A DNA stretch of 56,539 bases from Aplysia californica (Eukaryota). The notes beneath the pieces are model-generated. The model had not been told where the DNA came from, ran no database searches, and saw nothing but the letters and a program-made list of their open reading frames with translations. A program made the translations under genes and the position numbers. The stretch lies in contig NW_004798003.1 in assembly GCF_000002075.1 (NCBI RefSeq), positions 3,881 to 60,419 on the forward strand, given 5' to 3'. This document shows positions 3,001 to 49,400 of the stretch, in pieces; the stretch's first letter is position 1; each line of letters starts with the position of its first letter.

Positions 3001-3064
3001 TAAGAAAGCGTCGCCCTGAATCCCCGTCTGTTATAACAAGCTGAGTCTCGGTTCTGTGGGCCAA
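1..3064 (-). pseudogene. Gypsy pol (PR, RT, RNase H, integrase), frameshifted
   Basis: ORF fragments 2750-3064, 1878-2366, 1212-1856, 853-1242, 614-928 and 98-463 carry consecutive pol motifs in different frames. Confidence 0.9.
2337..2590 (+). mobile_element. Short retroposon 3' end with AATAAA and (ATCTT)n tail, inserted in Gypsy pol (spans an N gap)
   Basis: Near-identical second copy at about 16338-16497. Removing it restores the Gypsy reading ..[11 protein letters not shown].. Confidence 0.75.
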
Positions 3065-3126
3065 CAGAAGCGCAACCGGCTACTGCTGACTCAGCTTGGT
3101 GTTTCCCTGGTTCTGTGAGTACATCT

Positions 3127-4036
3127 TTATGAAAGCGCAAGGCGGATTACATTTCTTTGCCTTCTTGCCGATTTTGATGTGATATCGGGACAAGGGAGGT
3201 GTGTGGTCTCAGGTTGGTTTCTCTTTGAGTTACAACACTTGTGATGGGGAGTTAAGAGACAGAAAGATTTTGTCGGCTTCTTGTGCCTGAGTGCGGCAGT
3301 CAAGATCTCGTGTGCTGCAAGGGGCGTCCTTATCTGTTCTGGAAGCTGTTTCAAAAACAGATGTTTAAAAAGAATACAAGGTTCGTGTGCGCCGAGTTGG
3401 GCCAGCATGGAGTCCATTAGCTCACTAGGTTTTCTGTCTCCCAAACCAGTGGAGTTGAACAGCGCTGCTGCTCTTTCCGTATTTGAAAGGCCGTAAGCGG
3501 ACAAGAGAAAACGTTTTATAGACTCGTATTTGTTTGTTATCAGGAAACGACAAATGCAGTTTTTGGGACACCTGAATAGACATAAGGGTCTTGAACATCT
3601 AGCTCTCACTGGCAAACTTGAAGGCAAGCGAGGCAGGGGTAGGCCCAGAACAACATACTTAGGGAACCTAAACAAATGGGTAACAGGGAAAGATCAGGGA
3701 AACGTAGCTTTTCTGAGAGCATCCGAGCAAAGGAATGAATGGAAAATCATGATCGCCGATGTCTGTCGCAGATCTGGCATTGGATGATGATGATTTGTTT
3801 GTTGTTGGGGGGTTCGTAATGATTGACAGCGCCCTAGTGGCTGTGTCGTTGTCCAAGGCGGCAACGACATGGAAGTACTTAATGTCATCTTGGTTGATTC
3901 CTCGGAGAGCGAATTGTGCTTCCGTTTGAGCAAACAAGGCCTCAGGGCCTGATGTCCAAAACGTTGGAAGTTTAATCGCAACAGCACTTACTTGGAAAAT
4001 GGCCATTGTCGTTGTAGCTACACCGGTATAATCCAA
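3127..4036 (-). pseudogene. Gypsy gag, split by an RTE insertion
   Basis: ORFs 3668-4036 and 3127-3675 join in frame (..ITNPPTTNKYESIKRFLLSAYGLS..) once the insert 3539-3792 and one TSD copy are removed. Confidence 0.85.
3539..3792 (+). mobile_element. 5'-truncated RTE-clade LINE 3' end inserted in gag
   Basis: Reads IRKRQMQFLGHLNR..LTGKLEGKRGRGRPRTTY, has a (GAT)n tail and an exact 11-bp TSD ATTTGTTTGTT at 3528-3538 and 3793-3803. Confidence 0.9.
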
Positions 4037-5615: not shown

Positions 5616-5766
5616 ATGTCAAAGAAAATGGAAACAGATCAAATTGACAAAGAAGCAGTACAAAAGCCAGACAAAATGTTCACTCTAAAGAAATGGAACT
5701 TGGTCGCAATGTGGAGCTGGGACGTAGAATGTGACACCTGCGCTATTTGTCGAGTTCAAGTGATGG
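5616..5766 (+). CDS. RNF7: RNF7 coding exon 1
   Basis: ATG at 5616, KKWNLVAMWSWDVECDTCAICRVQVM, donor GTGAGT at 5767. Confidence 0.93.
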
Positions 5767-8700
5767 GTGAGTCAGCTTTCTTTAAATAAAAATAATAAAT
5801 AATGGGAACTGTTGCTATAATAGTAGATGCCAACCAAGATCCGGATGTAAATCGAGAGTCTAGATCTATTACAAAAGTTTTGACTTTGGTATGTTTGGTG
5901 GGCTAGTTTGTAGTTGTAGTCCTTCAGACAGTTCACTAGATCTAGATCTAGATCTAGTTGATCATCGGCATGATGAATCGACAACTTGACATAAATTGGC
6001 ACTTTTTCGGTAGTTCCCACCCCCCTTATTTGGGCCTAGATCTAGATCTAGATCCATAACGTTTGATGCGCGACAAGCGTGTTTGTTTATTTGTATTAAT
6101 TCGTGTTATCTTTTTTATAAACAGTCACAGCAATTCTCGTTCCTTAAGTTTACCTTATTCAAATTTGTACACACNNNNNNNNNNNNNNNNNNNNNNNNNN
6201 NNNNNNNNNNNNNNNNNNNNNNNNNNNNNNNNNNNNNNNNNNNNNNNNNNNNNNNNNNNNNNNNNNNNNNNNNNNNNNNNNNNNNNNNNNNNNNNNNNNN
6301 NNNGATGAAAACTAGTGACATGGTCCATTGCCATGCGGTAAGTGGCAAAGCGGGCCCGCTACGGTGAGATCTAGTCAACTGGCGAGGGAAGCCCCGGTTG
6401 ATAACAAAAATAGATGGCGGAAATACGTCATCTATATTTGAGCCAATCACAGAGGTACAGTGCTAGGTGCCAGCTGTAGCTTCATGTAGGCCAGCTCTAT
6501 TCAGACTCGAGTTCGATTAGATTTTTTAGCTGTTTGGACTCGAATCTGAACGGTCGGTTCTATCTATTCAGACTCTGCTGACATTAAAGATCCCTTGGTG
6601 GGCCTAAAACCGATACAGGAGTAGGCTTGGGCAGCTACCCGGGCGAAATTAAAAATATATTCCTTCCAGTCTGAAAATGCTTTGAAATTTAATGTGTCCC
6701 ACGATCCCATGGGCTTATATTATATGACCTTTATGCATTTGTGAGCACTGTAAAACACTTCTCCCCAAAAACAACCCCAAATCTTCATTTTGTCTTTCCG
6801 CTCCATTTCCAATTGCAAGTGATTGCTATGAGAGCTAGGTTTGAGGCTGACTTATAATGAAAATGACTAACCATGGCCACCTTTGACGGGCTAATAAAGG
6901 CATAGCAGAAAAAAATGCAAGGGTGGTACTGGTGGTACGGACCTTTGGTCGCTATGGAGAGTTGACTGCTACAATGCTATATATTACGTGCAGGGGTTTG
7001 ACTGTTTGATTTCAAGTTGTGGGTTTAATCATGTAGATACTTTCATGACTAACATAATGATTTTATGACATATATTACCTTGAATATGATGTTTTTGTGA
7101 GTTTTTTATTTTAATTTTTTTGTGTATAGTAAGCGCATTAAATGTATATTTGTACAGAAAAAGTGTATGTTTTGTTAATGTCATTTTTATTATCAGATGC
7201 TTGCTTGAGATGTCAGTCGGAAAACAAGCAGGATGATTGTGTTGGTAAGTGCTTTGTTCAATAATTTTCATCCTTTGCTGTTGAAAAGGATCGGGTTATT
7301 CATTAAGTATTTATATAGGCTTTCACATCTGATTTATATTTTTAATAAAGCAGCTTATATTTTATCTCATTAAGACTTGGGGACACCTAAGTTTCAGTGA
7401 CAGGAAAGGTAGTATACATTTTTTTTCATCAAAATTCAAGCAAGGCAAATAAAATGAACAGACTTTAAGATCAGTAACCTCGTATGCCCCCAAATTGACA
7501 AGCACCTGATTCCACCACTTCAGGACACAAATAAACATGTGGCATGTATAAAATAAAATTGATCTTTTTAAAAAAAAAATTGGCAACATCTGTATGTATA
7601 GTACTGGGTGTGATGTAAGGGAAGAAAGTGAGCTCTGTTCAATTATGTCTATATATGTTCGTCTTGCTTTGTCTTTACCAAACATTCTGCAAGGATTCAT
7701 GACCACATGTAGCGCACATTTGTTTCTCTTTTAAAACGTTACTTTCTTGATCTTTACTGAACCTGCTCTAATGGCCACCTGTCCAAGACAATAAACTGGA
7801 CAAACACCCACTTCCCACTTTCTAAAATCAGTCATCTTCTTCACTATCATCTGTAAGTGGGCAACCCAGTTTCTAGTGCGAAGGCTGCTGTTCAACGCAG
7901 GTCCTCCAGGCTCCCTTACTTAGAGTGTTAGGTCTGTCTGCCTTGGGTTCGGCCAATATTTCCTTTCAAGTGTCTTGAGCATTGGGCGAGCTTAGTGCTT
8001 TAGTTTTAGTAAGGTTTTACAGCGCTCACAACTACATAAGGTCATATGAGTGCCAAGGGGTGGATGTCACTAGAGAAGTCCAAATGGGGAATCAGGCTTA
8101 CTCTGCTCACCTTTCTAGCAGCAACAGCACAAAGTCTGCCTCGACTACCAAGGCACCCTGGAAATAACAGTTCACAAGAGAGTGATCAACATACAAAAGA
8201 GGTAGAGGAAAAATGATGAATCAGCAGTTCCCCCTATGTTGTTCCGGCACAGTACAATCATGACATTGATATATCAGTCCGTTAACAATTCTACTGTGTA
8301 TAAGAACGTGTTAATATTCCCCCCTTTGGGAAATTGGGCGAGCTTGTAGCAGATGTTTTCCTGTTTGGCTGCTAGTCCCACACTGACACTGCTCTGAGCT
8401 GCCATTAAATCTGAATTATAATGACACTGTCCAAGATGTCCACCTGTCTAATGTGGTGATTAACCTACCGTCAGCCTGGGCTACTTAGGCCACTCGGGGT
8501 AACTTAGGCGACTTACAGAGAACGGTCCTTACTAAGGAACAGAAAAACGTGCAGCCATTGTGTTCAGCAGGCTAACTACGAGCTAGATTTATTCGGGTAG
8601 ATGTCTAATACAATGCTAGGCTGGCTAAAAAACCACGTTATACCACATCTAAGACTCCTCAACAATCTGTCTGAGTAATGAGGAAGAGGCGAGAGTGTTC

Positions 8701-8884
8701 CTCGTATTATTTTCTGTTTGAGAATTGCACATAAATAAAACATTGTTGTTGATTTCTGCCCACAGTGGTGTGGGGCGAGTGCAACCATTCCTTCCACAAC
8801 TGCTGCATGTCCCTCTGGGTGAAACAGAACAACCGCTGCCCGCTATGCCAGCAAGAGTGGGTGGTGCAGAGGACGGGCAAGTGA
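5616..8884 (+). CDS. RNF7: RING-box protein 2 (RNF7/RBX2/SAG), join(5616..5766,7197..7244,8766..8884), 105 aa
   Basis: Spliced product MSKKMETDQIDKEAVQKPDKMFTLKKWNLVAMWSWDVECDTCAICRVQVMDACLRCQSENKQDDCVVVWGECNHSFHNCCMSLWVKQNNRCPLCQQEWVVQRTGK has the RBX2-type RING-H2. GT-AG introns, phases 1/1. Confidence 0.97.
6584..6760 (+). mobile_element. Deu/Nin-like SINE 3' fragment in RNF7 intron 1
   Basis: taaagatcccttggt..gagtaggctt..acccgggc..tatgaccttt..gtaaaac. Confidence 0.7.
7197..7244 (+). CDS. RNF7: RNF7 exon 2 (48 nt)
   Basis: Acceptor tttttattatcag, (D)ACLRCQSENKQDDCV, donor GTAAGT. Confidence 0.95.
8766..8884 (+). CDS. RNF7: RNF7 coding exon 3
   Basis: Acceptor cccacag, VVWGECNHSFHNCCMSLWVKQNNRCPLCQQEW..GK, TGA at 8882-8884. 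Confidence 0.96.
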
Positions 8885-11002
8885 TCTCCTCCCGCCAGAG
8901 CTCAAAGGTGACAGGTCGTGGGGGGTCAAGGGTCAATGTCCTCTCTCGTGGATGAGCCCATGGTCCACTGGCTCCTGGCTGGCTGCAACGTGGTGGGCCA
9001 AGCTTCAATGGCAACGTCTCAGCTGTTGATATGAGTTTGATCTTGTCAGTGTAATATATGTGTGTACGCTGTGTGTTTGATGTGTGTACTGTGGGAGCTT
9101 TTAATGTTTGTGAAGATATTTGTTGTTTAGCTCGCTGAATCCTAGGCCCTGCGAGGCAGGCGGCAGACTATTCACTGACATCTGGGAGAAAATGGTGTTT
9201 TTCATAAATTAAAAGAAAACTTTCTTATTTATGTCTGTAATTGGCTCATATTTTGATTTAATATTAGAAATAGGATAGTCTCAAAACAAATTGATGAGAG
9301 GTGCACATCTGTCATTATTTTGTGTGTATTGAAGTTGAAAAAAGTAAGGAAAACTGAATGAGAAAATATCCTGTGTTGTTTAGCAAAATTCAGCAGAACT
9401 GAGCTTCCCACAAGAGACTGCAGCTTAAACTTCAAAGAAAATCTATGTTTTGCACCTAAAGTTTTTGTCGTGTAACTTAAAGGAACAAAAGTGGAATAGA
9501 ACAGCTAACTAATGGTATCTACTTATATTATCACATATTTGCAATAGGATTGGAGGAAGAAAAATTACTAAGTTGAAATTGCACATGTATTATGAAAGGA
9601 GTTGGCTGTTTATAGGAAAATACCTCTTGTGTGTGCATTAATGCTAATAGATTCAGTGAGTTAATATGAATGGGAAAAGGAAAACTGTTTTGAAGCCTTG
9701 TAATTATCTGTGCGAGTGAGAGAGTGTGTCTGCGACTAAGTGTGATGGAATAGATTCCTCAAGTCTTGCAATTATTGCAAGTGACAGTGCTTTTTAAAAA
9801 TCTTTTAAAAGCCTTGCTGATCGATTTTGAGATGTATGAAATTGCTAGAAAAACAGTTTCCAATTGTTAATGAGGATTGAATGCAATGCCCTGTTTTGTT
9901 AAAACATTTAGTTGTCCTCAGGTTAGACGTAATGAAATGCAGTTTTATACATTCGTCATTTTGAAGAAAATAGACCTGCAGGAACTAGTTTGCATTTCAA
10001 ATATTGTATCTTTGTATCTGAGCATATGTGCCAGTCTTTCAGTTTGGGACTCTTTGTAAATAATTGAATGACAGTACTGTCTTAAATATCATTGTTTTTT
10101 AGTTGAATTTGTCTTAAATTATCAAGGGTTTTCAGGTGTGTTGTTTTTGTACTGTAAGGTACTCTTCATTTTGTCATCAATGAGCTTGCTGCCAACTGGT
10201 AAAGAAACTGAACTAGATTTCTAGACACTATTTGTTTCCTCTCTTGTTTAAGATTCTTTATTTTTGATACAGCTGCTTTGCCTTTTTTTTGTCTTTTTTT
10301 TTTTTTAGGTGCCAATCCACTCCTATGTCCGTTAGAGTTCTGGTGACTGCCTGTGATGTGTGAGCCTTTGAAAATACAAAATTAATTAATTTAAGAATGA
10401 AAGATGATAGTTTTTGAAGTGTGTTTAGAAGTATTGTGCTTGGTGAGTTTTGATAGGAAGTTGTTGAAGGCGGTTCATGGTTTTTGTTCTCTTCCGAGCA
10501 AGATGCCATGTCCTGTTGAGGCTCTTTTTCATCAGTCTGACTAAAGGCACCCATATCCTAAATAAATGTGTATAAAACTAATACAGATATAATGTACATT
10601 TTCCCTTATGGCCACCTTTTTCTCTCAAGGTGTTTTATTTATTTTTCATAAGAATTTTACTGCACTTGCAACGCATGTGGGTCATGAATGTTGAAGGTTA
10701 GAGTTCTTACTAAAGAATAACATACAGGTAAAGAAGGAGAAAAGAGGATGATAGGTGTTTAACTGCAAAGAAGGAGAAACCTCACCAGAGCAACCACCAA
10801 CCACCCACTCTCAAGGCTATTGCGGTTCAAGACCAACCTCCTTGACACATTTGTTGACACTACAGACATTAGTTTATTATGGACAAGATAGAGGCAGGTG
10901 GAAATCAAATCTTTTTCTGTTGACTTGGGATAGAATTGGGATAAGAGAGTCACTTCGTTATAGTTATACATGTAATAATAATTGTTATTTGGAAGCACAT
11001 AT

Positions 11003-11182
11003 CTGTCCCTGCGGTTTTATGCCCAAAAAATTCTAAAATTATGCTAACTGAGCCCAAAAATGTGAAATTTGGCGATTCTGTTAATTTTAACAAAGAATGA
11101 TCAAAGGGAAAAAAATTGAAATTATGCAAAAAATGATCAAATTTTGCTCAAATATGCGGGGTGCATAAAACCACGGGGACAG
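11003..11182 (+). mobile_element. MITE with CTGTCCC..GGGACAG termini and 6-bp TSD
   Basis: TIR CTGTCCC(T/C)G(C/T)GGTTTTATGC. TSD ACATAT at 10997-11002 and 11183-11188. Confidence 0.8.
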
Positions 11183-35686: not shown

Positions 35687-37118
35687 AAAAGTTCTGAGGC
35701 AACAATGTGCTGATGTGCGTAACATACTGCCGTTGTTTTGTTGGGGTTTTTTTATTGTTTTTTTTATGTTCTTTTTGTTTTTGTTTGGTTTAAATTGTGT
35801 TTTTTGTATTTCAAAAGTTTTTTTCTTGCCGACATCAGGAGCCTTGGGTCCAAACACCTGTACAGCCATATGTGCCTTGTCTCTTGGAAGTTGTAGACTC
35901 AGCAAGTTGTGCGTTCTGCAGCTGGCCAAAATCTACTTCTTTAAACGACATCTTGTCCTCTTTTGTCAATTGATTTCTATATATAAGTATGTGTGTGCGT
36001 CTGTTTACATTAGAAGATGGATGTGTTGAACCCCTCTTGACCCAATGGGCCGGATATCTGGTTTTCCTGTATAACCCGATAGACCTGAAATCAGGTTCAC
36101 TACCTGTTGTTTTGTAATTAATAAAAATATAATTTTTGCACGCAAAACAAACTTCAGTCTATAAATGTTGTTTCAAAAAATGTAAAGTGGTATAAATGTC
36201 AGGCTGTTAATGAAGGTATGAAAAATTTGTTGTAAATGTGTGTTTGTTTTTCAAAGTCGACCAATATTTTAACGACATACTTTAGAAACACAAACAAAAA
36301 TCATCCCGAGCTAAGAGAGTTTGACACATTGATTGATGTTGGATGTGCAAGTGAAATTTCCATACTGTGAACTGCAAAGAGATTTGTGTTCAGTTACAGG
36401 TTTCATGAGTATGATAAATGAATCAGATGTCGTTCATTGTTTTGTGGATTTTCTTCTGGCAGCATCATAATCATATCTCATGAGTTAATGTGTGTTCGAT
36501 GTAGAAAATAAGTACATGTGTGTATGTTTTGGAGGGCGATAATATTCTTGTGAAGAACAAAGAGAGATCACGAACGTGTTATGGTGTTGTGCGTTGTTGT
36601 GTGAGACAAAACTGAAATGAATCAAAGCTGCTTCTGTTTTATGTTCTTTCTTCATGTAATGTTGATGTAGCCTATTGTGTGCCATAGGTTTGTGTGTGTG
36701 TGTGTGTGGGCATGCATTGGTGTTTTTTGTGTTCTTTGTAAATCTTTCTAGCTTCTTGTGTCTGAATCGTCAAGTGCAAACATGACACTGCCTTTTTGTC
36801 CCATTCTGTTTACCAATTCTGAAATATGGCCCTGTCTTTTATCTTGTATTATATTCTGGTACTTGAACATGTGTACTTGCTATTGTGGATTACAGTTGAT
36901 GCATTGTATTTTTAAGCAAGTTTAGGATGTTGCAACCAGTGTCCTGTTGTCTTGTACATGATGCATTCCGCTTTGCTTTGTTAGGAAATGATTGTGTCAT
37001 CACTGACCCTAGACCTCATCCCTGTCTCTGTGGTCGTTGCTAGATGATGCTGTTCGAGTATCTTGGTGGATGTTTGATGGGGGCTCTAATGTGGTTTGCT
37101 CCTTCTTTCCTATCAAAC

Positions 37119-37400
37119 ATCACCAATGCCTTTCACCCCTGGCAGGGTATAGGCCACATACAAGCTCCTTCCTTTTATCTCTGTCCTGAGCCATCGTTCC
37201 AAGTGAGCTTCATTTCTCTCATGTCCCTTTCCACGCATCTCCTCCATGTTTCACGTGGCCTACCCCTGCCTCGTACTCCCTGTGGGTTCCACTGCAGTGA
37301 CTGTCTTGTGATGTTTCCGCTGGGCTTTCTTAAGGTGTGTCCCATCCATCGCCACTTTCTAAGTCCTATTTCTACTTCTATTTATATCCTTTTGTCCTGT
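37119..37400 (-). mobile_element. RTE-like LINE 3' fragment
   Basis: Minus strand reads ..GHTLRKPSGNITRQSLQWNPQGVRGRGRPRETWRR.. Confidence 0.75.
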
Positions 37401-39382
37401 CCTTTCCCACAGTTTATCAAACATATTATATTGTCCTTACACATGTATCTCTTGTTTTCTTTGTATGTTACTCTCTACCTATACCTTTAACTCTAATGTT
37501 CGGCACTTGTGACCTATTTTGTGTTGCAAGTGCCATTAAATATTTGTTTAAACTCTTACTGAGACTAAAGTTAACAGGTTGCCTGAGGGTCCAAATGTAT
37601 GTTTTGATGCTATTTGATAAAATGAATAAGTCAAAGATGTCCATCAAACCCGTACAGTTGCTCTTTGCATTTATGAATGTAATTTTCTACTTTATCGTTG
37701 GTTATAATGCTACATGTGAGATAGCATGGTGAAATCAGGTGCTTGTCAAAATAATGAAATTGAAGAAACAGGCATTTTTTCTGCCAGTTTGGCAATTTTT
37801 ATCAAATTTGTTTTTTGACTTTACACCATTTTTTCCAATTAAGAGCACATTTCTGGGTGGATTTTACTGAAAAACGTTGATTAAAGGCACGAAAAAGTAA
37901 GTTTTCAGTTTCCACGGACTATCAAGCTATGGAAATAACCTGACTTTGGTGGCCATTTTCTCCCTAATTCCACCTTTGAAACCAGGCGACCCCCACCTTC
38001 AATCTCAAATATCTTGACTTCCATTCAAGATAGATGGGCATTTATATTCACTGATAGCAAGAGAATTGAACAAGCTTTGGGTAGAGTTTTGAGCTTGTTC
38101 TTGTTATTTCACTTGGTACTCCACAACCACAGCAGTTGTCTGATATTGAGTTTCATTGTGCTCTTTATTCTGTGAATCAAATGTGTGAGTGTGTGTGGGT
38201 GTGTTTGGGAGGGAGGTATAATGTATACGTATAGAACTAAGCATGCAAACTTTATGTGTTTTGAAGAAAGTAACTGTAGTTGTAATGTTTGTGTTGCCTG
38301 TAGTGTAAATTGATTTTTATCATGAATGAGAATGTGCATGGGTACGGGAAGTGTATAGAGTGTGCTTGGACGCATGAGTGGATCAGAATTATGTTCTGGA
38401 TTGTGTAAAGTTTGTTTGTTTGTTTGTTTGTTTGTTTTTCTTTTTGCTTGAAAAAGTAAACTTCCTTTTTTTTTGTCTTTCTACTATTTATGAAGTGGTG
38501 AGGAGGTGAATAAAACAACTGAGATTTCCATTCTGTCTTACTTGTCTTACTTGTCCACTGTGTTGGGGTCACCGCAGTCGGAACATGTCCATCTCTGCTC
38601 CCCTTCCCTCTTGAGGATCCGTCCCAGAGTCTATCTTCTTGTAGTCTCCATCATAATCTGGGTAGGAGATCCGTTGGACTGGTCCGCACAGATGGCTGTG
38701 TTTCCCCTCTCCTCCTTGGATCCTCTTCTCCTTCAATCTACCTAGAGTGTGGTAACCGCTATCCGCCCTATTCTTCCTCAAATTTTCCCTTTCCATAGTG
38801 TACATAGTACAAGTTATTTCTCTGGTGGAACTGAAGAAACACAGTTCTCTACCCTAGAATTACAAAGTAAGTTCTATCTGCTCAGTAGTAGGGCCTACCT
38901 AGTTTTGAGAAATTTGACGTTTAAAATTTAAGTTTCACAACATGTCAAGCTTTTTTCACTTAAGATTTTGATATATATATATATAACAAATAGGACATTT
39001 GGCCATTTGGTGTCTTGGTCTTACAAACTCAAAACGTCCAAAAATGTCAGATAGAACTTTGTAATTCTATGGTAGCGACTTGTCATTCTGTAAGTTGGCT
39101 TGGTTTTGGTTATGCTGTGTAAAAGTAGTGTGGATGAAATCAGTTGTTGTTGTTTTTTTTCTTTGTTTTTTTTTTGGGGGGGGGGGGATGGGCTGTTCTT
39201 GCCCTTGGGTTGTTTGGAGAGTTCCCAATGCTCTCCACCTGTTTACGGTCGACTCCACCGCTTGCGTTGAACTATGATGACCGTATTGTGTTGCAAGTGT
39301 GATCAAACTCGGCAATAGATAGTCCACCGCTGAATAGTCATTTATTAAAGTCTGCCCTACGTCAGTTGGACATAGTAATACC

Positions 39383-39569
39383 GTGGGTGGTTGGCGGGTG
39401 CTCTGGTGTGGTTTGCTCCTTCTTTACTATCAAACATCTATCGTCCTTATAAATCTCTCCTTCTTCTTTTTTATGTTTGTCACTCCCTTGTAACACCTAT
39501 AATCTTCTGGCGCTCATATGACCATATGCAGTTGCGAGCGCCGTAAAACCTCTACTAAAACTATACTAA
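39383..39569 (+). mobile_element. Family B short retroposon copy
   Basis: TSD ATAGTAATACC at 39372-39382 and 39570-39580. Confidence 0.85.
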
Positions 39570-40236
39570 ATAGTAATACCACCAAGGAGGTTATACATTT
39601 GTAAGGTCCTTGATTATCTCCTTCAAAAAATCATTGCGGATGGCAAGAGAAACATCCTTCTGGCGAGTTTGAGTTTAAACTTTGAGGAAAGAGAGATACT
39701 GATAAACAAATTAATTGGTATTTGCGCCGAAACTGAAACACTGTAGCTTTGCCGACTCTGTGCCGCACAGTCAGCCGAGGAAGTCATGCTGTCTGGGAAA
39801 GTCTTTGTGGAGCCTCTCCTCAATAATGAATTTGTTCATCAGCGTTTGTGGAGTCCACCAATCACCTAACATGTATTTAAATAAATAAATAAATAAATTG
39901 CATTTATATATAGCGCCTTTCCACAAAGAAGTGCTCAATGCTCTGTACAGTAATACCAGAGAGTTTACAGTAATATTACTGTAAACCCTCTCTTCTGGTG
40001 GTAATACAAAGAACACAGCTCCCATAGTAACCATCTTTCNNNNNNNNNNNNNNNNNNNNNNNNNNNNNNNNNNNNNNNNNNNNNNNNNNNNNNNNNNNNN
40101 NNNNNNNNNNNNNNNNNNNNNNNNNNNNNNNNNNNNNNNNNNNNNNNNNNNNNNNNNNNNNNNNNNNNNNNNNNNNNNNNNNNNNNNNNNNNNNNNNNNN
40201 NNCAGTGTTTTAGCGCAAATACCGCTTTGTTTATCA

Positions 40237-40445
40237 CTATCCCCGCGGTTTCACCCCCCCCCCCCCAAAAAAAAAAAACCAAAAAAAAAAAAATTTCTGA
40301 AATTATGAAATCTGAGCCCAAAAACGTGAAATTATGCGATTCTGTTAATTTTATCAAAGAATGATTCAGGAAAATAATCAGAAATTGTGCAATAAATGAT
40401 CTAATTTTGCTAAGTTATACAGGGTGCTTAAAACCCCGGGGACAG
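40237..40445 (+). mobile_element. Second copy of the 6-bp-TSD MITE
   Basis: Colinear with 11003-11182. TSD TTATCA at 40231-40236 and 40446-40451. Confidence 0.8.
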
Positions 40446-40847
40446 TTATCAGTACATGTATAGTATATGTGATCTGTCTTTCCTCAAAGTTTAAACTCCA
40501 ACTCGGCAGAAGGAAAACTTGAGCATGTTTCTCTTGCTATTCGCACAATGATTCTTTTGAAAGAGATAATCAAGGACCTTACAACTGTATAACCCCCTCG
40601 GGGATAATCTTCTTTTACAAGGGTATCATGCTGGACTACAGAGTGGAATAACCCTGGTTCACAACCCAACAACACGGGCATTTTAATTTTAATCTTTTTA
40701 ATATTGTGTTTTAAGACTATCGGACCCGCAAGGCTCTCCACGCGCTCATGGTGTTTGGAGGGTGCCACTGGTAGTTCTTATTTCTTTATTGTCCCTCTCT
40801 CTTTTTTCTGTCTGTCTCACTTACTTTTCCCCATCACTTACTTATTA

Positions 40848-41520
40848 CAGTGCGGTCAAAAATTCATGGTGCAACTTATCCTTAAATACCTTTTGAATGG
40901 TTAAAACGTAAATCCTTGTCACCCATACTTAATACTTTGCACAGCAGTTTTATCAATTTGTCTTAACTTAAGCATATTTTTCCACAACAGTTGAGGCTGG
41001 ATGAAAAAAACTTTTCTTCATTAATTTAATTTATATAAAATACTACTAATCTCCTTCACGCGGAAAATAGAATTGTTCACAGCACTTCCCGCTTCTCACA
41101 CACATTTTATTTTGCATACGCATTGGCTTACATCACAGCTCACCTATTACCCTTTTTAATGGCAAAACTAGATACCAGAAATTAATTTTATAGTGAACAC
41201 TGTTTTTGCACTAAAAGTTCTCAAAACTAGCGTTCAATAAAGATATCTCGCGATTAGAAAAAAAAAGACAGGCTTGCTTTTAAAAGCTATATGTTCAAGC
41301 TGTGAACCTTTTAAAATCAGTAGAAACCACCCGCTGGGATTTGTTATTAGTATTTTTAAGGAATTTTCTAGAATAGAGCTAACAACTTAGTGTTTACAAA
41401 ATTATATATCTTTTAATTAAGACAAAGTACTACAAGTCACAGTACCAAAGCTGGAGAGTTTATGTTCCATACGTTGAGATATTTGGCAATAAGTTGCACA
41501 GCGAAATTTTGACCGCACTA
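40848..41520. mobile_element. Tc1/mariner-type MITE
   Basis: TA-CAGTGCGGTCAAAA..TGCAACTTAT left end and ATAAGTTGCA..TTTTGACCGCACT right end. Confidence 0.7.
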
Positions 41521-41626
41521 CATGTATAAGTCTTACTGACATACTCTATCCCTATACAAACAAGCATTAAATGACCATTATTGTGTTGATGTGCTTATTT
41601 TTACTCAAACGTACAAACATACAAGG

Positions 41627-42062
41627 AGGGGGGCGGGGTGTCGTGGCCTAGAGAATATGGTGTTCGCTACTGACATTCAATAGGTACCGGGTTCGAATCC
41701 TGATAGCGACGGAAATTTTTCCTCTCTAAAATTGTATCCTTTCACCTTCTTAACTGCTGTCTTTCAGCCACACCCCTGATCTTATGGTAGGAAAGATCTA
41801 CACCTAGCCTTCTTGGACAAGGACGAAAAATCGGAAGGTCCTGTGTGCAAGTTGCGCACGTAAAAGATCCCTTGGTTGTCCAAAATCGATAAGGGTAGGC
41901 TTCGGCTGCCACCCGGGCAAAATTCAAAATTTCCTACCAACTGAAAATGTTTAATACATTTTATACATATTAATTTGTCTGTATACCTATTAATATGTCC
42001 CACACGCTCATATGACCTTATATATTCAGTTGTGAGCGCCGTAAAACGCTTACCAAAGCAAA
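41627..42062 (+). mobile_element. Deu/Nin-like SINE copy
   Basis: Colinear with 19299-19845 with an internal deletion. B box GGTTCGAATCC. Confidence 0.85.
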
Positions 42063-42192
42063 CAAACAAACAAGGCTCTCCATCCATATTAAAGGGAGAT
42101 GGTAATGCTATCGCTGAAAAAGTTCTAACTTAACTTACGTTACGTCCCTTGGGCAATAATAAACTCACTGAGGCGATAACAGAACCTCAAAA

Positions 42193-42512
42193 AATTATCA
42201 CCCTTATTCGAGAAGGCTAGGTCTAGGTGTTCGATCTTACCTACCCTAAGATCAGGGGTGTTGCTGAAACACAGCAGTAAGGAGGAGCCAAAAGGAGTAG
42301 CAGTAGAAAAGCTGCAGAAAGAGCCAGGAACCCAAAGGAGGCAAAGAGTGGAAGCGAAAGCTGACGACAGAACATGATTAGAGGGGAGGAAATGAGTTGA
42401 AAGGAGAAAAAAAAAAAAAAAAAAAAGAAAACTTTCCTTCGCTGTCAGGTTTCGAACCCAAGACTTATTAAATTAGAGGCGAACACCTTAACCTCTAGAC
42501 TACGAGAGCCCC
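42193..42512 (-). mobile_element. Deu/Nin-like SINE, 5' half
   Basis: Reverse complement of the head and pyrimidine-rich body of the same family. Confidence 0.75.
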
Positions 42513-42732
42513 ACCCACCCCGTGGTTTAATTTAGATTAGTGGTAGGTGCTTCGCTGTCACACGCAGGAGACCCGAGTTGGGCTCCTTAATAGGGATGGA
42601 TCTAACTTTTTACCGAGTGTCTGGATCTTTCAGTTAGTGTTAGGATGTTGTCATGTATCGCTCTCATCTTGGGGTGACCTTGCAGCCAGGGTCGGAAGCC
42701 CGCCTCCTGCCTAAATGATCTAAATCGTGTTG

Positions 42733-43069
42733 ATAATAATAATAAATAGCATTTGTATAGTGCATATCCCCGCTCAACAGCAGGTTCTATGCGCTTTACT
42801 CTAAATTATTACCCCAGCACACCATGGAGCACTCAGAAATATTCTCAGCTTCCCGGGAAGCATACTGTTAAGCGCTCAAACACTAACAAATTGACAAGAT
42901 CTTTCGCTGTCTATAGCCGGGTACCCATTCCCACCTGGGTGAAGTGAGGAAAAAAGTGTAAATTTAAGTGCCTTTCCCAAGGACACAACGTCGGGCCCCT
43001 AACGGGATTCGAACCCACGACCTTATGGTTGCGAGTCCGAGAGCCTAACCACTAGGTCACCGACGCCAC
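42733..43069 (-). mobile_element. CORE-like SINE copy
   Basis: Colinear with 14937-15297. Confidence 0.8.
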
Positions 43070-43301
43070 GTGATGGCCTAAAAACACCAACAATTTGTTG
43101 GGGAAAAAATTGGGTCAAACCCGGAGTATAAATAGAGATTTGATTGTTTGCCACCCTAGACTAGAATTATAAAGCTCTGTCTGCTCAGTGCCAAGTACAG
43201 TTGTATTGAGAAATTTTGATGTTAAAAACGTTGAGTTTCACAACACGTCATGCTTTTTCGCACGCATCTCTTTGAATATCTTGATAACGAACGACTCCAT
43301 A

Positions 43302-43741
43302 TGTGGGGCAGCGTGGTGGAATCAGGCTCTCGTCAAAATAATCAAATTGAACAAACCTGCATTTTTCCGCAGGTTTGTGAATTTTTATCAAATTTTTGTT
43401 TTTTGGCTCAACACCTTTCATGCCCAATAAAGAATTCATTTCTGTGTTGATTTTTCTGAAAAACGTTGATTAAAAGCACCAAAAAAATGGAAATTTTCAG
43501 TTACCACGGACTCTTAGGCTAAGGAAATAACCAATCTTTGGCGGCCTTTTCTCACTAATGTTTCCTCTGAAAACAGGTGACCCTCACCTCCTTCATTCGC
43601 AAATATCTTCAAATGTATTCAAGATGAATGGACATTAATTTTTAATCCAAATAAAGACAAGTGAACAAGCTTTAGGATGATACCAATAACTCTACATACC
43701 CACAAATTGACGAGAGCCTGATTCCACCACGCTGCATCACA
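43302..43741 (+). mobile_element. MITE with TGTG...CACA termini (~440 bp)
   Basis: Perfect 29-bp inverted core GCAGCGTGGTGGAATCAGGCTCTCGTCAA, TA on both flanks. Confidence 0.85.
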
Positions 43742-44339
43742 TATAATCTTACGAATTTGATAGAGCAGACAGAACATTAATTTTGGTATCTGACCTCATC
43801 GTCTTAGTAACGGCCAAGAATGTCACATACATGTAGAACTTTGTCATTCGAAGGTACCGAGAGGCTAAACGTGCGGCAGATGCTCAGCTTCCCCTGGGTT
43901 TTTTTTTTCTTCGACCGGTATCTTATAATCTGGTTTTGGCCCCAGTTAAGGCCTAATATTTAGGAAGGCGACNNNNNNNNNNNNNNNNNNNNNNNNNNNN
44001 NNNNNNNNNNNNNNNNNNNNNNNNNNNNNNNNNNNNNNNNNNNNNNNNNNNNNNNNNNNNNNNNNNNNNNNNNNNNNNNNNNNNNNNNNNNNNNNNNNNN
44101 AACGCAACACTTCATTCGGAGAGTCTGTACACGTTTGTATCAAATGAAGTATGAAGATACTCAAGAAAGAACAAAAGAAGTGTTTATTGAAGCTGATCCG
44201 TTTACAACCCAGCCCATGGATCAATTTAATCACATAATATTGTATGAACTGATTTCGATACATTGTCTTGTCTTCCTTTTATCGGAGTGCTGATAAGCAC
44301 AAGTCGATACCGGTATTTAATAAAGATCTGATCACACCT

Positions 44340-44575
44340 TTAGAACATTGTATGACCATCGTTAACATTAAACAGACCAAGGCGTGTCTTCACATGGATT
44401 TTTATAACATTTATTGTAAAGTTTTGTTGAGAAATTATGTCCTACTTTTGTATCAGCGCTACCCCCAATTGTGGCAGATTTTCCAATCGGCCTCTTGCAC
44501 GCACTCGATTCGGATCGTCCCTTTTCTTGTGCACTATATTGAAGACATGTCCGGTGCAGCCAGTACTGGCGAGTT
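44340..44575 (-). pseudogene. Tc1-like transposase C-terminal remnant
   Basis: Frameshifted PDMSSI* / NRVRAR..ENLPQLGVALIQK*DIISQ / KSM*R..NDGHTMF*, parallel to the Tc1 C-terminus (SPDLNPIE..L..AL..W..I.Q..SMRRR..GGHT.Y). Confidence 0.65.
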
Positions 44576-45413
44576 CGTATGACATTCATGTACGGTAATT
44601 ATAACCTTCCAGAAACTGTGTTGCTGTTGTTGTTGTGGGTGGTTTCCTTATATTATTCGGAGGGTTTTACCTGTCTAAGACGGAGAATGTTTTGTCCACT
44701 CAGCCCTGATTTGAAACAAAACTACACTAGATTCTAGATCTAGATCTATCACGTTTGGTTCCATCGGCTCAAACTTTTACGTCACGCCGCCAGGCGAGGA
44801 AGGAGGAGTTATAGGGGCTCAATATGAAAAGAGAAGGATGTTACCCATCCCTGTGAGCCAACGCCTACTCTAAAACTGGCGTTGATGTGAGCCTAGACGG
44901 TCAGAGATAGTATAAGAACGTATAGATGTGAGCCCTTATAAGAAGTTATTGGTGCAGCGATAGTGTGTGGGTGTGAAATTCCTGTGATGTCCTTTTGTGT
45001 GGAAGGGCAGTGAACAAGGGAAGATGGTGATATACCCCTGGTCCAAGCCTTCATCCCCCGACCTCCACTCGCCAGTACCTGTGAACTGTGAAAGTGCTTG
45101 AAGTGCATGAGGCTCCAGTATGGAAACTTCGACGAGTCGCCAGACAGAACCCATGGGTGTGAAATTAGTATGGCCGGCAATAATATGTCTGCCGCCCTGA
45201 TCGTACGTCCAGCCAAGAAAACAGTTCCTGGAATCATTAAATTATTGTTTCAAGCACGAGAGGATGGCACTGGTTGACTGCGTTTATTAACCACGGTGTG
45301 TGGGGCTAAGGATGGGACGTACGTGTAGGTTATAGATGATTGAACGTTTCTATTTTTGATAGGTCAAACAAATTAGGTCTTTTTTATTTATTAATTTTAA
45401 AAAAATGGTAATA

Positions 45414-45800
45414 AGTGTTTTACTGCGCTCGCCAACTGCATTAGGTCATATGAGCGCACGGTACACATTAAACGTTTTCAGTTGGTAGAACATTTTGAAT
45501 TTTGCCCGGGTGGCGGCTGAAGCCTACTCTTATCGGTTTTAGGATATTATTTCACGCGCAACTTGCATACGGGGCCTCCGAGATTTTTTATCTTTGTTCG
45601 AGAGGCTAGGCGCAGATCTTTATTCCTACCAGAAAATCAGGGTTGTGGCTGAAAGACAGCAGTAAAAATACGGGGCCAAGGAGTAGCAGTAGAATTTTTT
45701 TAATTTAAAGGATGTTGCAGAAAGAGTGGGCCCAGCGAAGAGGAGGCAAAGGGAGTGAGTTGGTCAAAAAATAAAGCGGAGACGTAGAGAGCAGGAAAGG
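45414..45800 (-). mobile_element. Deu/Nin-like SINE, 5'-truncated
   Basis: Reverse complement of the body and tail (ttttgaattttgcccgggtggcgg..). Confidence 0.8.
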
Positions 45801-46233
45801 AGGTGAGGTACAAGACAAATGTCAATAATATGCAAGCCCTTGGACAGTAGATAAGTAGGACTGACGCATACCATTATCAGAAAGGATAGCACCTGTGAGA
45901 TGCGTTAAAAAAAAAATAGCAGAGGGTTTTACAGCGCTCGCAACTGCATAGATCTAAGGTCATATGAGCGCCATCTGGGAGATGAGAAATTTTGACCACT
46001 GTTTGCCGACCTGACAGGCAACCTTTGATCCCACCGGCTGAGTCTATTACCCCCCCCCCCACCCCTCCACCGCCCTCGAAATCCCCCCTAAGATAGTACC
46101 GTAGGGTATAGTATCTTAGATCCCTCTACGGAAAATGTCTAGCCAAGGCATGGAAATTATTTTCCGGCTCCCTTTGCGATTCTGTCTTATATAAATAATA
46201 ATAAATGTACACACACGTATACACACACAAACG

Positions 46234-46291
<58 letters not shown>

Positions 46292-46446
46292 AATAACAAT
46301 AATATTTTTAAAAATAATAAATTAATTGCATGAAAGCCTTGTCCAAAAGGTCTCCGCCACGAGCCATTTAATACGGAACTACGGCTGAGCTGAATTGAAA
46401 CTCCGGACATCACGCGTGTAAAATAAAAACATGAACCAAAGTAAAC

Positions 46447-46475
46447 ATGGCTGATTCGGAGACGGATCACGAGAG
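46447..46475 (+). CDS. RUBCN: Probable RUBCN first coding exon (MADSETDHE-S)
   Basis: aaacATGG start context in CpG-containing DNA. Ends AG|gtctgc in phase 2, matching the next exon. Confidence 0.55.
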
Positions 46476-49400
46476 GTCTGCTGTTATGGTTTTTTCTGTG
46501 TATACAGTGAAGATGTGGACACCTTAGGAGTGCACATTCTCCATTCTTTCTAGTACTAAAATTTCACCCTGAAATGAAACAGTCATGATATTTCTTTCAT
46601 CACCTGTTACACTACATGACGGTCTCTTTCGTACACTAGCACAACATCAGGGCAGTCTCTGCCTTTCATCATTGTGTTGGTGTTGTTATGCCACCGCCCA
46701 CATTTTCACTTTTTACCACCACACATTCCAGGCTGTCATTGTGACTGTGTTTTGAGTGGTCATATCAATGTTATTAATTAGATAGCAATAGAACTGGAAC
46801 ACCTCACCAAGGTTCTCCTTTTCTGTAATCTTCCTCTTCTTTCTTCTTCTTCATTTTGAAGTTGGGTCCTCTTGATTCTTGAAATAGGAGAGAGTAACTT
46901 GTTGACAAACCAAATAGGCCTAGGCCCTAGCCCTAGCCCTAGCCCTAGCAGAGTAAATCTAGAATCTAGATTTTAGATCTAGACTTACAGACTTCTAAGT
47001 AGGCTACTAAGTAGGCCTACTACTACTAACTTACTTTTAGTGAAATGCAGGCCTAAAAGGTTGAACTGAACACAGAAGAAAACATTGTTTTTGTTTGATC
47101 ACATAGATCTAGATTTATTTTGTTATCTTTACATATATTTGTACGGCAATGGTCTTGTTGAAATCCAGGTGATGGCACTGCTCAGTGGTTAGTGAAAGTG
47201 ATAGTGAGGTCAGGCTCACAATAACGTCTTGTGCGTGAGGTTGACACAGCGTTTTTGTGGGTGGTCACTCGGGTGTACCTTGAGCAACATATAAACCTTG
47301 CTTAAAAATAACAAGGCACTTCATAGTGGCATCGGCAATGGTGTTTGGATTGTCTTTATTAAATTCAGATTGTGAATTGATAAGGCTAGGGACTACTGAC
47401 TTCGGTGTTTAATTAATGTTGAATTGTTGAAGCATAAAATAGAGTAGCAACAAGTTAATAAAGAACCGTAACTGTCATTTTTACACCAATTTTGACAAAC
47501 CTTTGAGCAAATGTAATTTAGTCAAGGGGAACATCATCAGAAGTAAATCGATTTTTAAAAAGTCCCTGGAAAACATCAAGTAGGGCCTCTATAAAATTTG
47601 AAATTTCAGCCGAAATTGAAGAAAAGCAAAATTCACAACTTCCTAAAAAATCAACCATGATGTTTGTGCACTGTAGTACAAACAAATTGTCAGCAAACTG
47701 TTCAAATGTCTTTTAAGCTGAGAAAACAAACATTTTTTAGGAGCAAGAAAAATTGTTAGACTCTTAACGAATGAACCTCCTTACTTTTCTTACCCTTTTT
47801 GATTTTAGAATTTGAATTTTGACAAAACTGCAATTTAAAAAAAATGTTTAAAAATAAATTTTTGTCACAGTAGCCTATAATTTGAACAGCCAGCTGCTGA
47901 AATTTATTTCAAACTGACATCGCCTCACAAACTCAGGGGAGGCAATCACTTTTTGAAATATACGCTTCAGAAGTGTTGACCATTTCTCTCTGGACAAGCT
48001 TGATTAATTTGGACATTCTGGATAAACCCCGTTCATGTTTCTGAGTCAATTTATCTTGAATGTTCGGACACTTACACTCCAACAAGCACATCAGAATGTG
48101 TAAACCCCATTGCAGACACTGTGACTGCCACGAGGAGACCGTTGAACATCTTCTCCTTCACTGCCCAAACCTGGCAGCTCTTCAATGCTGGCTCTTACAC
48201 ACACCTACAGACTTACAAAGCCTGCTCTACTCTGTCGTTGACAAGGACATGTGGTTACTTGAGGGAGGCATTGCGCAGCCAAGAGCGAAATGCTCGTGCT
48301 AAAGGGATTTGAAAACAACAACATCTTGACTGTTCAATTTCTTGTTGTTTTCGTAGATTTTCTGTCTTTAAAAAAAAAAGGAAAAATTAAAGTGAACAAC
48401 ACCATTGCACTTTGAATGGGTCATATTTTTTTTTCAACAGTGTCTATGCAATGACACTTTTTTAAAACAAATTTATTCAAGTACAGATATAACACATAAT
48501 TATGATTTAGACTTTTACATTTTAAGAAATTGTTTTTACTCAGTTTCAGTTAAAATCTTAAGAAAACGATTTTTTTTTTCTTTTTAAACATATTTTTTAT
48601 TTCATGATCAAATTTGATGCACCCTTGAAGGAATTTTATGTTTAATTGTTTTGTTGATATTGGTGCTAAGATGACAGAGTTGTTGCCCTTAGCATTGTTC
48701 TTTTATTTTTAGACAGTGTATGCGTGCCATCGAAACAAGTTTAAATACAAATTTCCCAAAAAGCTCTTTGTTTTAAACAGAGATGTAAAAAGTTTTTGAG
48801 CCCCCCAAAAAAAATTAGAAAAAAATTGCCCGTTGGCGAAAAAAAATGCCGATTTCTTTGATTTCATTTTTTGGACAAGCACCTGATTTCACCACGATGC
48901 CTCACCTATTGTCTCTGCGCCAGCAAAATGGCTCTCAACTCATTTTTGCTACTTTTGAGAAAAATGGAATATAACTGTTCAACTAGTCTTTTATCATCTA
49001 ATAGTAGTAGAAAAGCTTGCCTTGCAAGTTTCTTTTGTGACTGCTTTTGTGCATTTTTATTTGGTTTTACCATAAGATAGAGTTATACACAGTACCACCA
49101 AACTAAGGAAAAGTCAAAATGCTAGTTCATTTTTTTCATTTTGGCACAGGCACAGCTATAAATGCCATTTTGCATGTGCTGTGACGATATTTTGTATCCA
49201 AGCAAGCATTGCATAAAGTATTGGATAGAACAGGCAGAGTGCTAGACTATTCCTGCTCTTCTATTTGATTTTAATGCTTCAGAAAGGTTAGCATTTAGTG
49301 ATCCAGGCTTAGTGGACACTTTGGACATCATGTTCATTTTGACTAAAACTTTCAGGTGTATTGTTAAAGATTAGAGGGGAGAGCGAGCTAGGGAGATGCA

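Follow-up and report, generated by a model that had tools for sequence, protein, structure and literature searches.

Palindromic TCTAGA arrays at housekeeping gene starts of Aplysia californica are built by TA-duplicating insertions and may be transposon excision scars

Introduction

A 56,539-nt stretch of the 927-Mb Aplysia californica genome (contig NW_004798003.1, positions 3,881 to 60,419, forward strand; the whole stretch analysed is called the window here) carries tandem runs of a palindromic hexamer, (TCTAGA)n/AGATCT, close to several gene starts. The locus raises the question of what these arrays are and how they come to be there. A first-pass annotation, made from the letters of the window, had proposed a lineage-specific promoter-proximal element: a factor-binding array, a nucleosome-positioning or cruciform signal, or a mutational signature of open germline chromatin. 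Here, we conclude with high confidence that the arrays are real, occur genome-wide, are tied to the 5' regions of housekeeping genes and are born by serial TA-duplicating insertion. We further weigh where the inserted cores may come from, and lean towards transposon excision.

Results

All of the runs listed in the first-pass annotation are present, within 1 to 2 nt of the places claimed (Table 1). The window holds 16 TCTAGA-period runs of 10 nt or more, where 60 block-wise dinucleotide shuffles give an expectation of 0.23 (maximum, 1), and 10 runs of at least 12 nt, against 0.02 in the shuffles. Among the hexamer repeat classes of the window, (AGATCT)n is at the top with its 16 runs, the next class having 11. 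The zones described as free of runs (about 9 to 21 kb, 33 to 44 kb and 48 to 56 kb) indeed contain a single 8-nt run (17084), and the last two are without any run of at least 8 nt. Genome-wide, a 20-mer of the array has 7478 matches, overlaps counted. The predicted hairpins of the arrays are weak (-4.8 to -11.3 kcal/mol), typical of any palindromic repeat, and their folding gives no evidence of function.

The proposed clustering at gene 5' ends is borne out across the genome. It was assessed in 10-kb stretches at the domain-start exons of 60 housekeeping loci (42 of 45 candidate Ras-family rows, the other three being internal or close to where a contig ends and therefore excluded; all 7 proteasome-alpha rows; 11 of 18 DnaJ), the controls being 20 HECT 3' gene-body stretches, 20 Forkhead (Fox) loci and 20 arbitrary places, one of them all N. 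Runs of at least 10 nt amount to 26 per 100 kb at the housekeeping starts (Ras, 21.3; proteasome, 49.0; DnaJ, 29.2), compared with 4.2 in HECT bodies, 6.5 at random places and 9.4 at Fox loci. At least one run is found at 40 of 60 housekeeping 5' loci, 4 of 20 HECT, 6 of 19 random and 5 of 20 Fox loci (one-sided Mann-Whitney test of housekeeping 5' loci versus HECT, random and Fox, p = 1e-4, 5e-4 and 1e-3, respectively). The 15 remaining Fox loci have no run at all; judging from peptide motifs, the run-positive ones may belong to broadly expressed subfamilies. Relative to Markov expectation, the ratios in 5' and control stretches are 33 and 12x for TAGATCTA, 18 and 10x for TAGGCCTA, and 4.8 and 2.6x for TACATGTA. 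In this lineage, housekeeping gene starts can be marked from sequence alone by means of the arrays, and in the window one cluster pointed to an exon missing from the annotation (see below).

The first-pass annotation had also placed arrays within about 0.7 kb downstream of first coding exons. A position strictly behind the first splice donor did not hold up, as arrays are found before as well as after starts, and also within 5' untranslated regions (UTRs). Their profile around the anchors is broad, with a peak 1 to 2 kb before the anchor, and is blurred, the anchors being coding exons, some of them not first exons, rather than mapped starts. A tight splice-donor link was discarded as weak: donor-to-array pairs reach about 1.2 to 2.5 times the control (369 versus 266 pairs in the reversed control), with 0.55 to 1.2 times the control expected from word frequencies. 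The CpG observed/expected ratio, a weak proxy for unmethylated domains, is 0.72 near arrays and 0.54 to 0.73 elsewhere. Since long contigs of other loci bear arrays near their ends in the sequencing runs X3, X5 and X15, the arrays likely reach mature transcripts in UTRs; these contigs show neither starts nor strands, and of the three runs X3 and X5 are putatively RNA.

Copies of repeats provide before/after pairs for derived insertions, and they reveal a feature absent from the first-pass annotation: the modules of the arrays are insertions of a constant core that double a TA. In this way a TA without a seed turns into TA-X-TA, with GATC, GGCC, GGC, GATTC or GACTC as X. At one seedless TA in the inverted repeat of a miniature inverted-repeat transposable element (MITE), modules occur at 23 of the 30 distinct variant places listed, in a pattern search that lists only part of such sites and in which four rows with a single module have common flanks, so that they could descend from one event. 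Single cores at this TA include GGC (twice), GCC, GGCC, GATC (three times), GATT, GATTC, GACTC and GAAGTC; others are multiples, such as (GATC)2, (GATC)3 and (GATC)5+GATTTC, or mixed stacks such as GGCC+GAATC+GATC, with up to about ten modules. The original sequence resumes after the second TA at 21 of the 23 module sites, the other two running past the printed stretch, and the seven remaining variants are substitutions, deletions or unrelated. A second, unrelated repeat has gained the same modules at its own TA (GATC, GACTC, GGCC and GGC), including the one at 45949 of the window.

Fifty derived non-tandem TA-X-TA insertions, with unrelated flanks, include 6 of GATC, 4 of GGCC and 6 of GGC/GCC. 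The nearest possible template in cis lies 156 to 3753 bp away for GATC and 114 to 4947 bp away for GGCC, and there is none within 110 bp for the 4-letter cores. Eleven other duplicated dinucleotides yielded no such core, save for rows that represent the same events. Slippage birth from a tandem seed is contradicted by the seedless gains and by the rarity of tandem duplications (2 of 49 motif-bearing insertions). These allelic series inside repeat copies exhibit a route by which a microsatellite can be born without a seed. The words between TAs in arrays are mostly GATC (761), followed by GAATC/GATTC (142), GA/TC (134), GAT/ATC (66), GATT (49), GATG (42), GAC (41), GGC (39) and GGCC (17); several of them could be products of GATC decay.

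Motif-bearing insertions favor array-rich surroundings (Fisher p=6e-5). Comparing all loci, with 406 of 437 events retained after a flank-length filter, their density per 10 kb of repeat is 4.55 in array-rich, 2.1 in intermediate and 0.59 in array-free surroundings (about 8-fold), while that of other derived insertions is 18.7, 16.1 and 13.2. This bias and the TA modules support a mutational signature of open germline chromatin, one of the possibilities raised at first pass, where we infer both the openness and the germline setting.

The view that the arrays are not tied to a single transposable-element family likewise stands. In recurrent repeats lie 49 of 159 arrays (31%), the level of control places 700 bp away (89 of 287), in a test whose database comprised 0.2% of the genome and would miss low-copy repeats; 68 of the 159 have unique flanks. 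One family as the carrier was rejected. Regular spacing, expected of a nucleosome-positioning signal, failed to appear: genome-wide, forward-match pairs of TAGATCTAGA decay smoothly (5367, 3718, 2736 and 2155 at gaps of 80-100, 165-185, 250-270 and 335-355, a coarse test), no nucleosome-length or ~200-bp periodicity is seen at these four sampled distances, and a local dip at 80-119 bp is weak.

Other mobile DNA shares the bias toward array neighborhoods. Among 47 copies of a MITE that were selected solely by its end, 45 are flanked by arrays, with 2.2 runs/kb versus 0.24 at random, and the MITE seed grows in 6-nt steps (27, 33, 39 and 45 nt). A MITE of ~260 bp (L136-L198; window 5998-6075), which we take to be Merlin- or Mutator-like, has 8-bp target duplications, ends GGCG/GGTG and several hundred copies, nearly always in array patches.

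Arrays and genes of the window

The genes of the window are RNF7-like, PUDP (with a HAD domain, found in a later exon), a fucosyltransferase of family GT11 and RUBCN-like; the features are collected in Table 1. The name of the RNF7-like gene is putative, the Pfam search having found no match on its short exon. Other copies of the small element that follows in its intron 1 are flanked by 8-bp target duplications.

Table 1. Arrays and associated features of the window
Feature	Position	Strand	Remarks
RNF7-like first coding exon	5628..5766	+	From sequence; donor GT at 5767
Array, one GATC module	5859..5868		Unique intron-1 sequence
Array, three GATC modules	5936..5957		Just beyond a MITE end
End of small inverted-repeat element (limits approximate)	5998..6075		Internal seed grown into array 6036-6054
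Array in PUDP intron 1	23113..23132		Grown inside a repeat copy; the single other copy compared has one TAGATC there
Array in PUDP intron 1	23254..23273		82-101 nt into the intron; unique flanks
PUDP exon 1, ATG at 23415	23355..23532	-	Contigs of 3/4 runs break off exactly at 23355
Unannotated exon divergent from PUDP	24102..24316	+	X5 and X15 contigs stop at 24316 and resume elsewhere
Mixed-module array	24373..24424		57-108 nt behind the donor of the exon ending at 24316
Two arrays inside inverted-repeat element ~24470-25160	24938..25032		Three other copies have arrays at the same places, of other lengths
Array at repeat edge	30643..30654		~1 kb before the fucosyltransferase (GT11) reading frame
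Array newly gained in a repeat copy (run 44733-44748)	44725..44752		Array and seed absent in 4/4 other copies
Single TA-GATC-TA module	45949..45956		In a high-copy repeat that usually has one TA here
RUBCN-like first coding exon	46447..46475	+	MADSETDHE, in frame with exon 2
Mixed patch of TA-separated GGCC, GGCCC, GCCC, GAATC, GATTT, GATC and GGC modules	46915..47114		440-640 nt into RUBCN intron 1; TAGGCCTA/(GCCCTA)n stretch 46915-46949; runs 46964-46983 and 47104-47114

The exon at 24102..24316 was predicted beforehand from the neighboring array and from a GTAAGT donor at 24317, and appears to be a first exon. It contains a 9-nt run (24262-24270), starts ~570 bp from the PUDP start, and has CCGGAAGT, which we assume to be ETS-like, just before its donor. 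It may serve as leader exon to the fucosyltransferase gene, which lies 7 kb downstream and for whose exon no RNA data set on record gave a match. A degenerate patch (~23497-23524) lies within the PUDP 5' leader. The raw-read run X24 matched only repeats of the stretch, so that no start site was mapped.

The arrays at 30643 and 44733 could not be assigned a first exon. A possible exon at 44437-44596 (+), with a GTAATT donor 140 nt before the latter array, obtained no RNA or homology support. The peptide MADSETDHE of the RUBCN-like gene resembles by eye the N termini of five gastropod homologues, tblastn giving this short exon no score; the nearest RUBCN homologues are those of land snails, freshwater snails and a sea slug. 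The (GCCCTA)n of the mixed patch in its intron reads (TAGGGC)n on the opposite strand, one letter off the telomere repeat, and GGGT and GGGCC words between TAs are 4-5x enriched near arrays.

Further mobile or repeated DNA includes a broken Gypsy-like long terminal repeat retrotransposon at 1-3700 (-), whose pieces in several frames resemble gag, protease, reverse transcriptase, RNase H and integrase; broken transposase-like frames at 28245-29500 (+) without a Pfam match; and a 136-bp unit in two tandem copies, 97% alike, at 34026-34300. At 25491-26315 lies an 825-bp TA-flanked element with CAGTGG ends, a Tc1/pogo-like MITE, which could be a source of TACATGTA or TACAGTA scars.

Discussion

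Where do the inserted cores come from? We lean towards stacked excision scars of TA-targeting cut-and-paste transposons in germline-open promoter DNA, extended by slippage, because excision is expected to leave two copies of the TA, one on each side of a core that is the same whichever side it is read from. According to this model, TA-targeting elements would enter open germline promoter DNA and later excise, with 2-3 bases of each inverted end staying behind between the duplicated TAs. The core would then stem from the outermost 2-3 bases at the two ends of an element that begins GA.. or GG.., and pairing between the last two bases of such ends, for instance GAT or GGC, could yield TAGATCTA or TAGGCCTA, respectively. 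Each scar would supply two TAs and frequently a CTAG, so that the site might be struck again, and replication slippage may then extend the GATC runs. The arrays would represent a by-product and a record of promoter accessibility, rather than a selected signal.

The genome offers an internal control for such a process, since TACATGTA is enriched 2.6-4.8x and TA-flanked, CAG-ended elements that could leave TACATGTA are present. The Tc1 footprint is stated to be taCATGta, or TACATGTA (PMC3520976), and Tc1/mariner footprints measure 2-4 bp, those of ZB, which leans to open chromatin, measuring 0-3 bp (PMC7913693). One copy of a GGC-ended family also sits at the very TA where other copies bear GGCC modules.

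Membership in the class of transposon footprints nevertheless stays putative, the matching element being missing, and several observations weigh against it. The source was sought by de novo inverted-repeat scans and through family-boundary words, nested insertions, filled sites and DDE loci. A search of ~1.9 Mb of promoter-rich sequence yielded no family of TA-flanked inverted repeats whose ends start with GA or GGC; Tc1 families (30 DDE_3 loci) have AA.. ends where repeats are seen; in the GGC-ended family, TA precedes only 43 of 92 ends, a proportion that fits a 3-bp TWA duplication; only one of 20 candidate filled sites held an inverted-repeat (GGC..GCC) element, with ambiguous flanks; and young intact ISL2EU elements have AGAC/AGAT ends but duplicate AT (10 of 10 left ends among those listed). 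Scars that far outnumber resident elements would be unusual. Array expansion within MITE copies does not follow flanking array density (rho 0.12, p 0.42, n = 47), in a test in which 45 of the 47 copies were already in array-bearing places. Finally, Tc1 excision products in worm germ cells are varied, not uniform (PMC4490562). None of the 30 DDE_3 and 5 HTH_Tnp_4 loci matched the cores, in a search that did not extend to pogo or to most families of the Harbinger-like kind, and a listing of Harbinger-like DDE loci (no sequence) gave none either.

Two kinds of element met in this search deserve description. One (L242; G000:C10:1052488-1054496), non-coding and 2 kb long, has a perfect inverted repeat of at least 30 bp that begins GGC; the element lies between two head-to-head copies of another repeat. 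The other is ISL2EU, a family with THAP, HTH and DDE domains plus a YqaJ frame, whose copies are 98.6-99.2% alike; those at L206 (G000:C1092), L207, L208 (C309) and L263 (C957) are 4.6 kb long with two long frames. The ISL2EU copies lie in array patches, with arrays in the stretch that runs from the left end to the beginning of the transposase; the promoter of the element itself would seem to collect them. A second ISL2EU-like transposase frame of ~410 aa (L210; G000:C25), with arrays upstream and no clear inverted repeats, may be a domesticated gene. ISL2EU was rejected as the source of the scars: the family duplicates AT, and the insertion events are at TA sites, several of them without AT.

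Scars without resident elements leave room for copying from neighboring arrays, which we regard as the main rival to footprints, though an unlikely one. Breaks made by any nuclease at open-promoter TAs would be mended by polymerase-theta-type end joining (TA priming, copying of an array unit and TA re-annealing), and the motif would spread without a transposon end. This would account for the absent source element and for the ~8x denser gains near existing arrays, and templated inserts make up 24% of Tc1-break deletions in PMC4490562. However, the templates reported there lie near the break, whereas here they would be 114 bp to several kb away. Furthermore, GG-type cores constitute 10 of the 16 single GATC/GGCC/GGC gains, yet a small share of the array modules (GGC 39 and GGCC 17, versus GATC 761), and the origin of the first motif would be left unexplained.

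Alternatively, the motif could be a selected promoter signal, either a factor site or a nucleosome-linker signal as proposed for teleost 6-mers, the insertions that create it being retained. The 4- to 6-fold enrichment at housekeeping 5' regions and the 15 of 20 Fox loci without runs are compatible with selection, as is the medaka ranking (PMC5607494), where GGCCTA/TAGGCC is 17th among accessible-linker 6-mers and 10 of the 12 factor-less words of the top 20 contain CTA/TAG. We nonetheless find it improbable: spacing is not periodic at the four gap classes, the arrays have no fixed place relative to starts, the gains are whole TA-duplicating modules of several cores that also arise in MITE ends, and the weights of AGATCT and TAGATC are negative in medaka. 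Least probable of all, and contradicted as a full explanation while standing as a secondary process, is that ordinary microsatellites were brought in by promoter-seeking MITEs and lengthened by slippage: one MITE family's seed does grow in 6-nt steps with 45 of 47 copies near other arrays, and two window arrays lie inside an element whose other copies have them, but arrays occur in repeats at the control level, unique flanks surround 68 of the 159, modules are gained where no seed exists, and slippage cannot produce a mixture of modules.

Returning to excision scars, a broader and more tentative possibility is that a nuclease or transposase of elements with G-starting ends homes on germline-open housekeeping promoters, that scars make better targets, and that teleost GCTAGC/TAGGCC and oomycete TACATGTA are scars of the same kind. 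The promoter words of both groups may then be scars long read as factor sites or nucleosome codes, some of which have since been co-opted.

Comparison with known systems

A literature search by titles and abstract beginnings, covering few subscription journals, returned no description of the motif in molluscs. Slippage-born hexanucleotide microsatellites grow in whole 6-nt steps from an existing seed. The 6-nt growth is common to both, whereas the birth of the Aplysia arrays is seedless and different modules alternate within them.

With Tc1/mariner footprints, the arrays share the duplicated TA and a short constant core alike from both sides, and TACATGTA is enriched here as well. They differ in that their cores begin GA/GG, not CA, in being stacked and concentrated at housekeeping promoters, and in that no element with matching ends and a TA duplication was found here. 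The ISL2EU family (PHIS group) is represented by young intact copies in array patches, with junctions that read TAGAC and TAGAT inward; it would be expected, however, to leave 8-nt scars at AT instead of 6-nt scars at TA, an AT target duplication being described for the group (PMC4482050, PMC4122938).

The arrays also resemble the 6-mers of accessible linkers in hypomethylated domains of teleosts (Nakamura et al. 2017, PMC5607494). The latter are lineage-specific, CTA/TAG-rich promoter words with no known factor, TAGGCC being common to both systems; they are enriched at promoters of broadly expressed genes, as the arrays are at 40 of 60 housekeeping loci. In contrast, the teleost words have a ~200-bp periodicity, absent here at the four sampled distances, and AGATCT, the main word here, is negative in medaka. 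That study proposes a positioning rule, not an insertion origin. Should the arrays be footprints, a comparison of repeat copies could also test how the fish promoter 6-mers that lack a factor arose.

Motif-1 of Phytophthora promoters, TACATGTA, is likewise an abundant TA-NNNN-TA palindrome upstream of genes; its authors weighed the idea of a footprint, discarded it and favored a site for a factor (PMC3520976). Here, by comparison, the insertion origin is seen directly in repeat copies, a warning that abundance and a palindromic form do not by themselves make a promoter motif a factor site.

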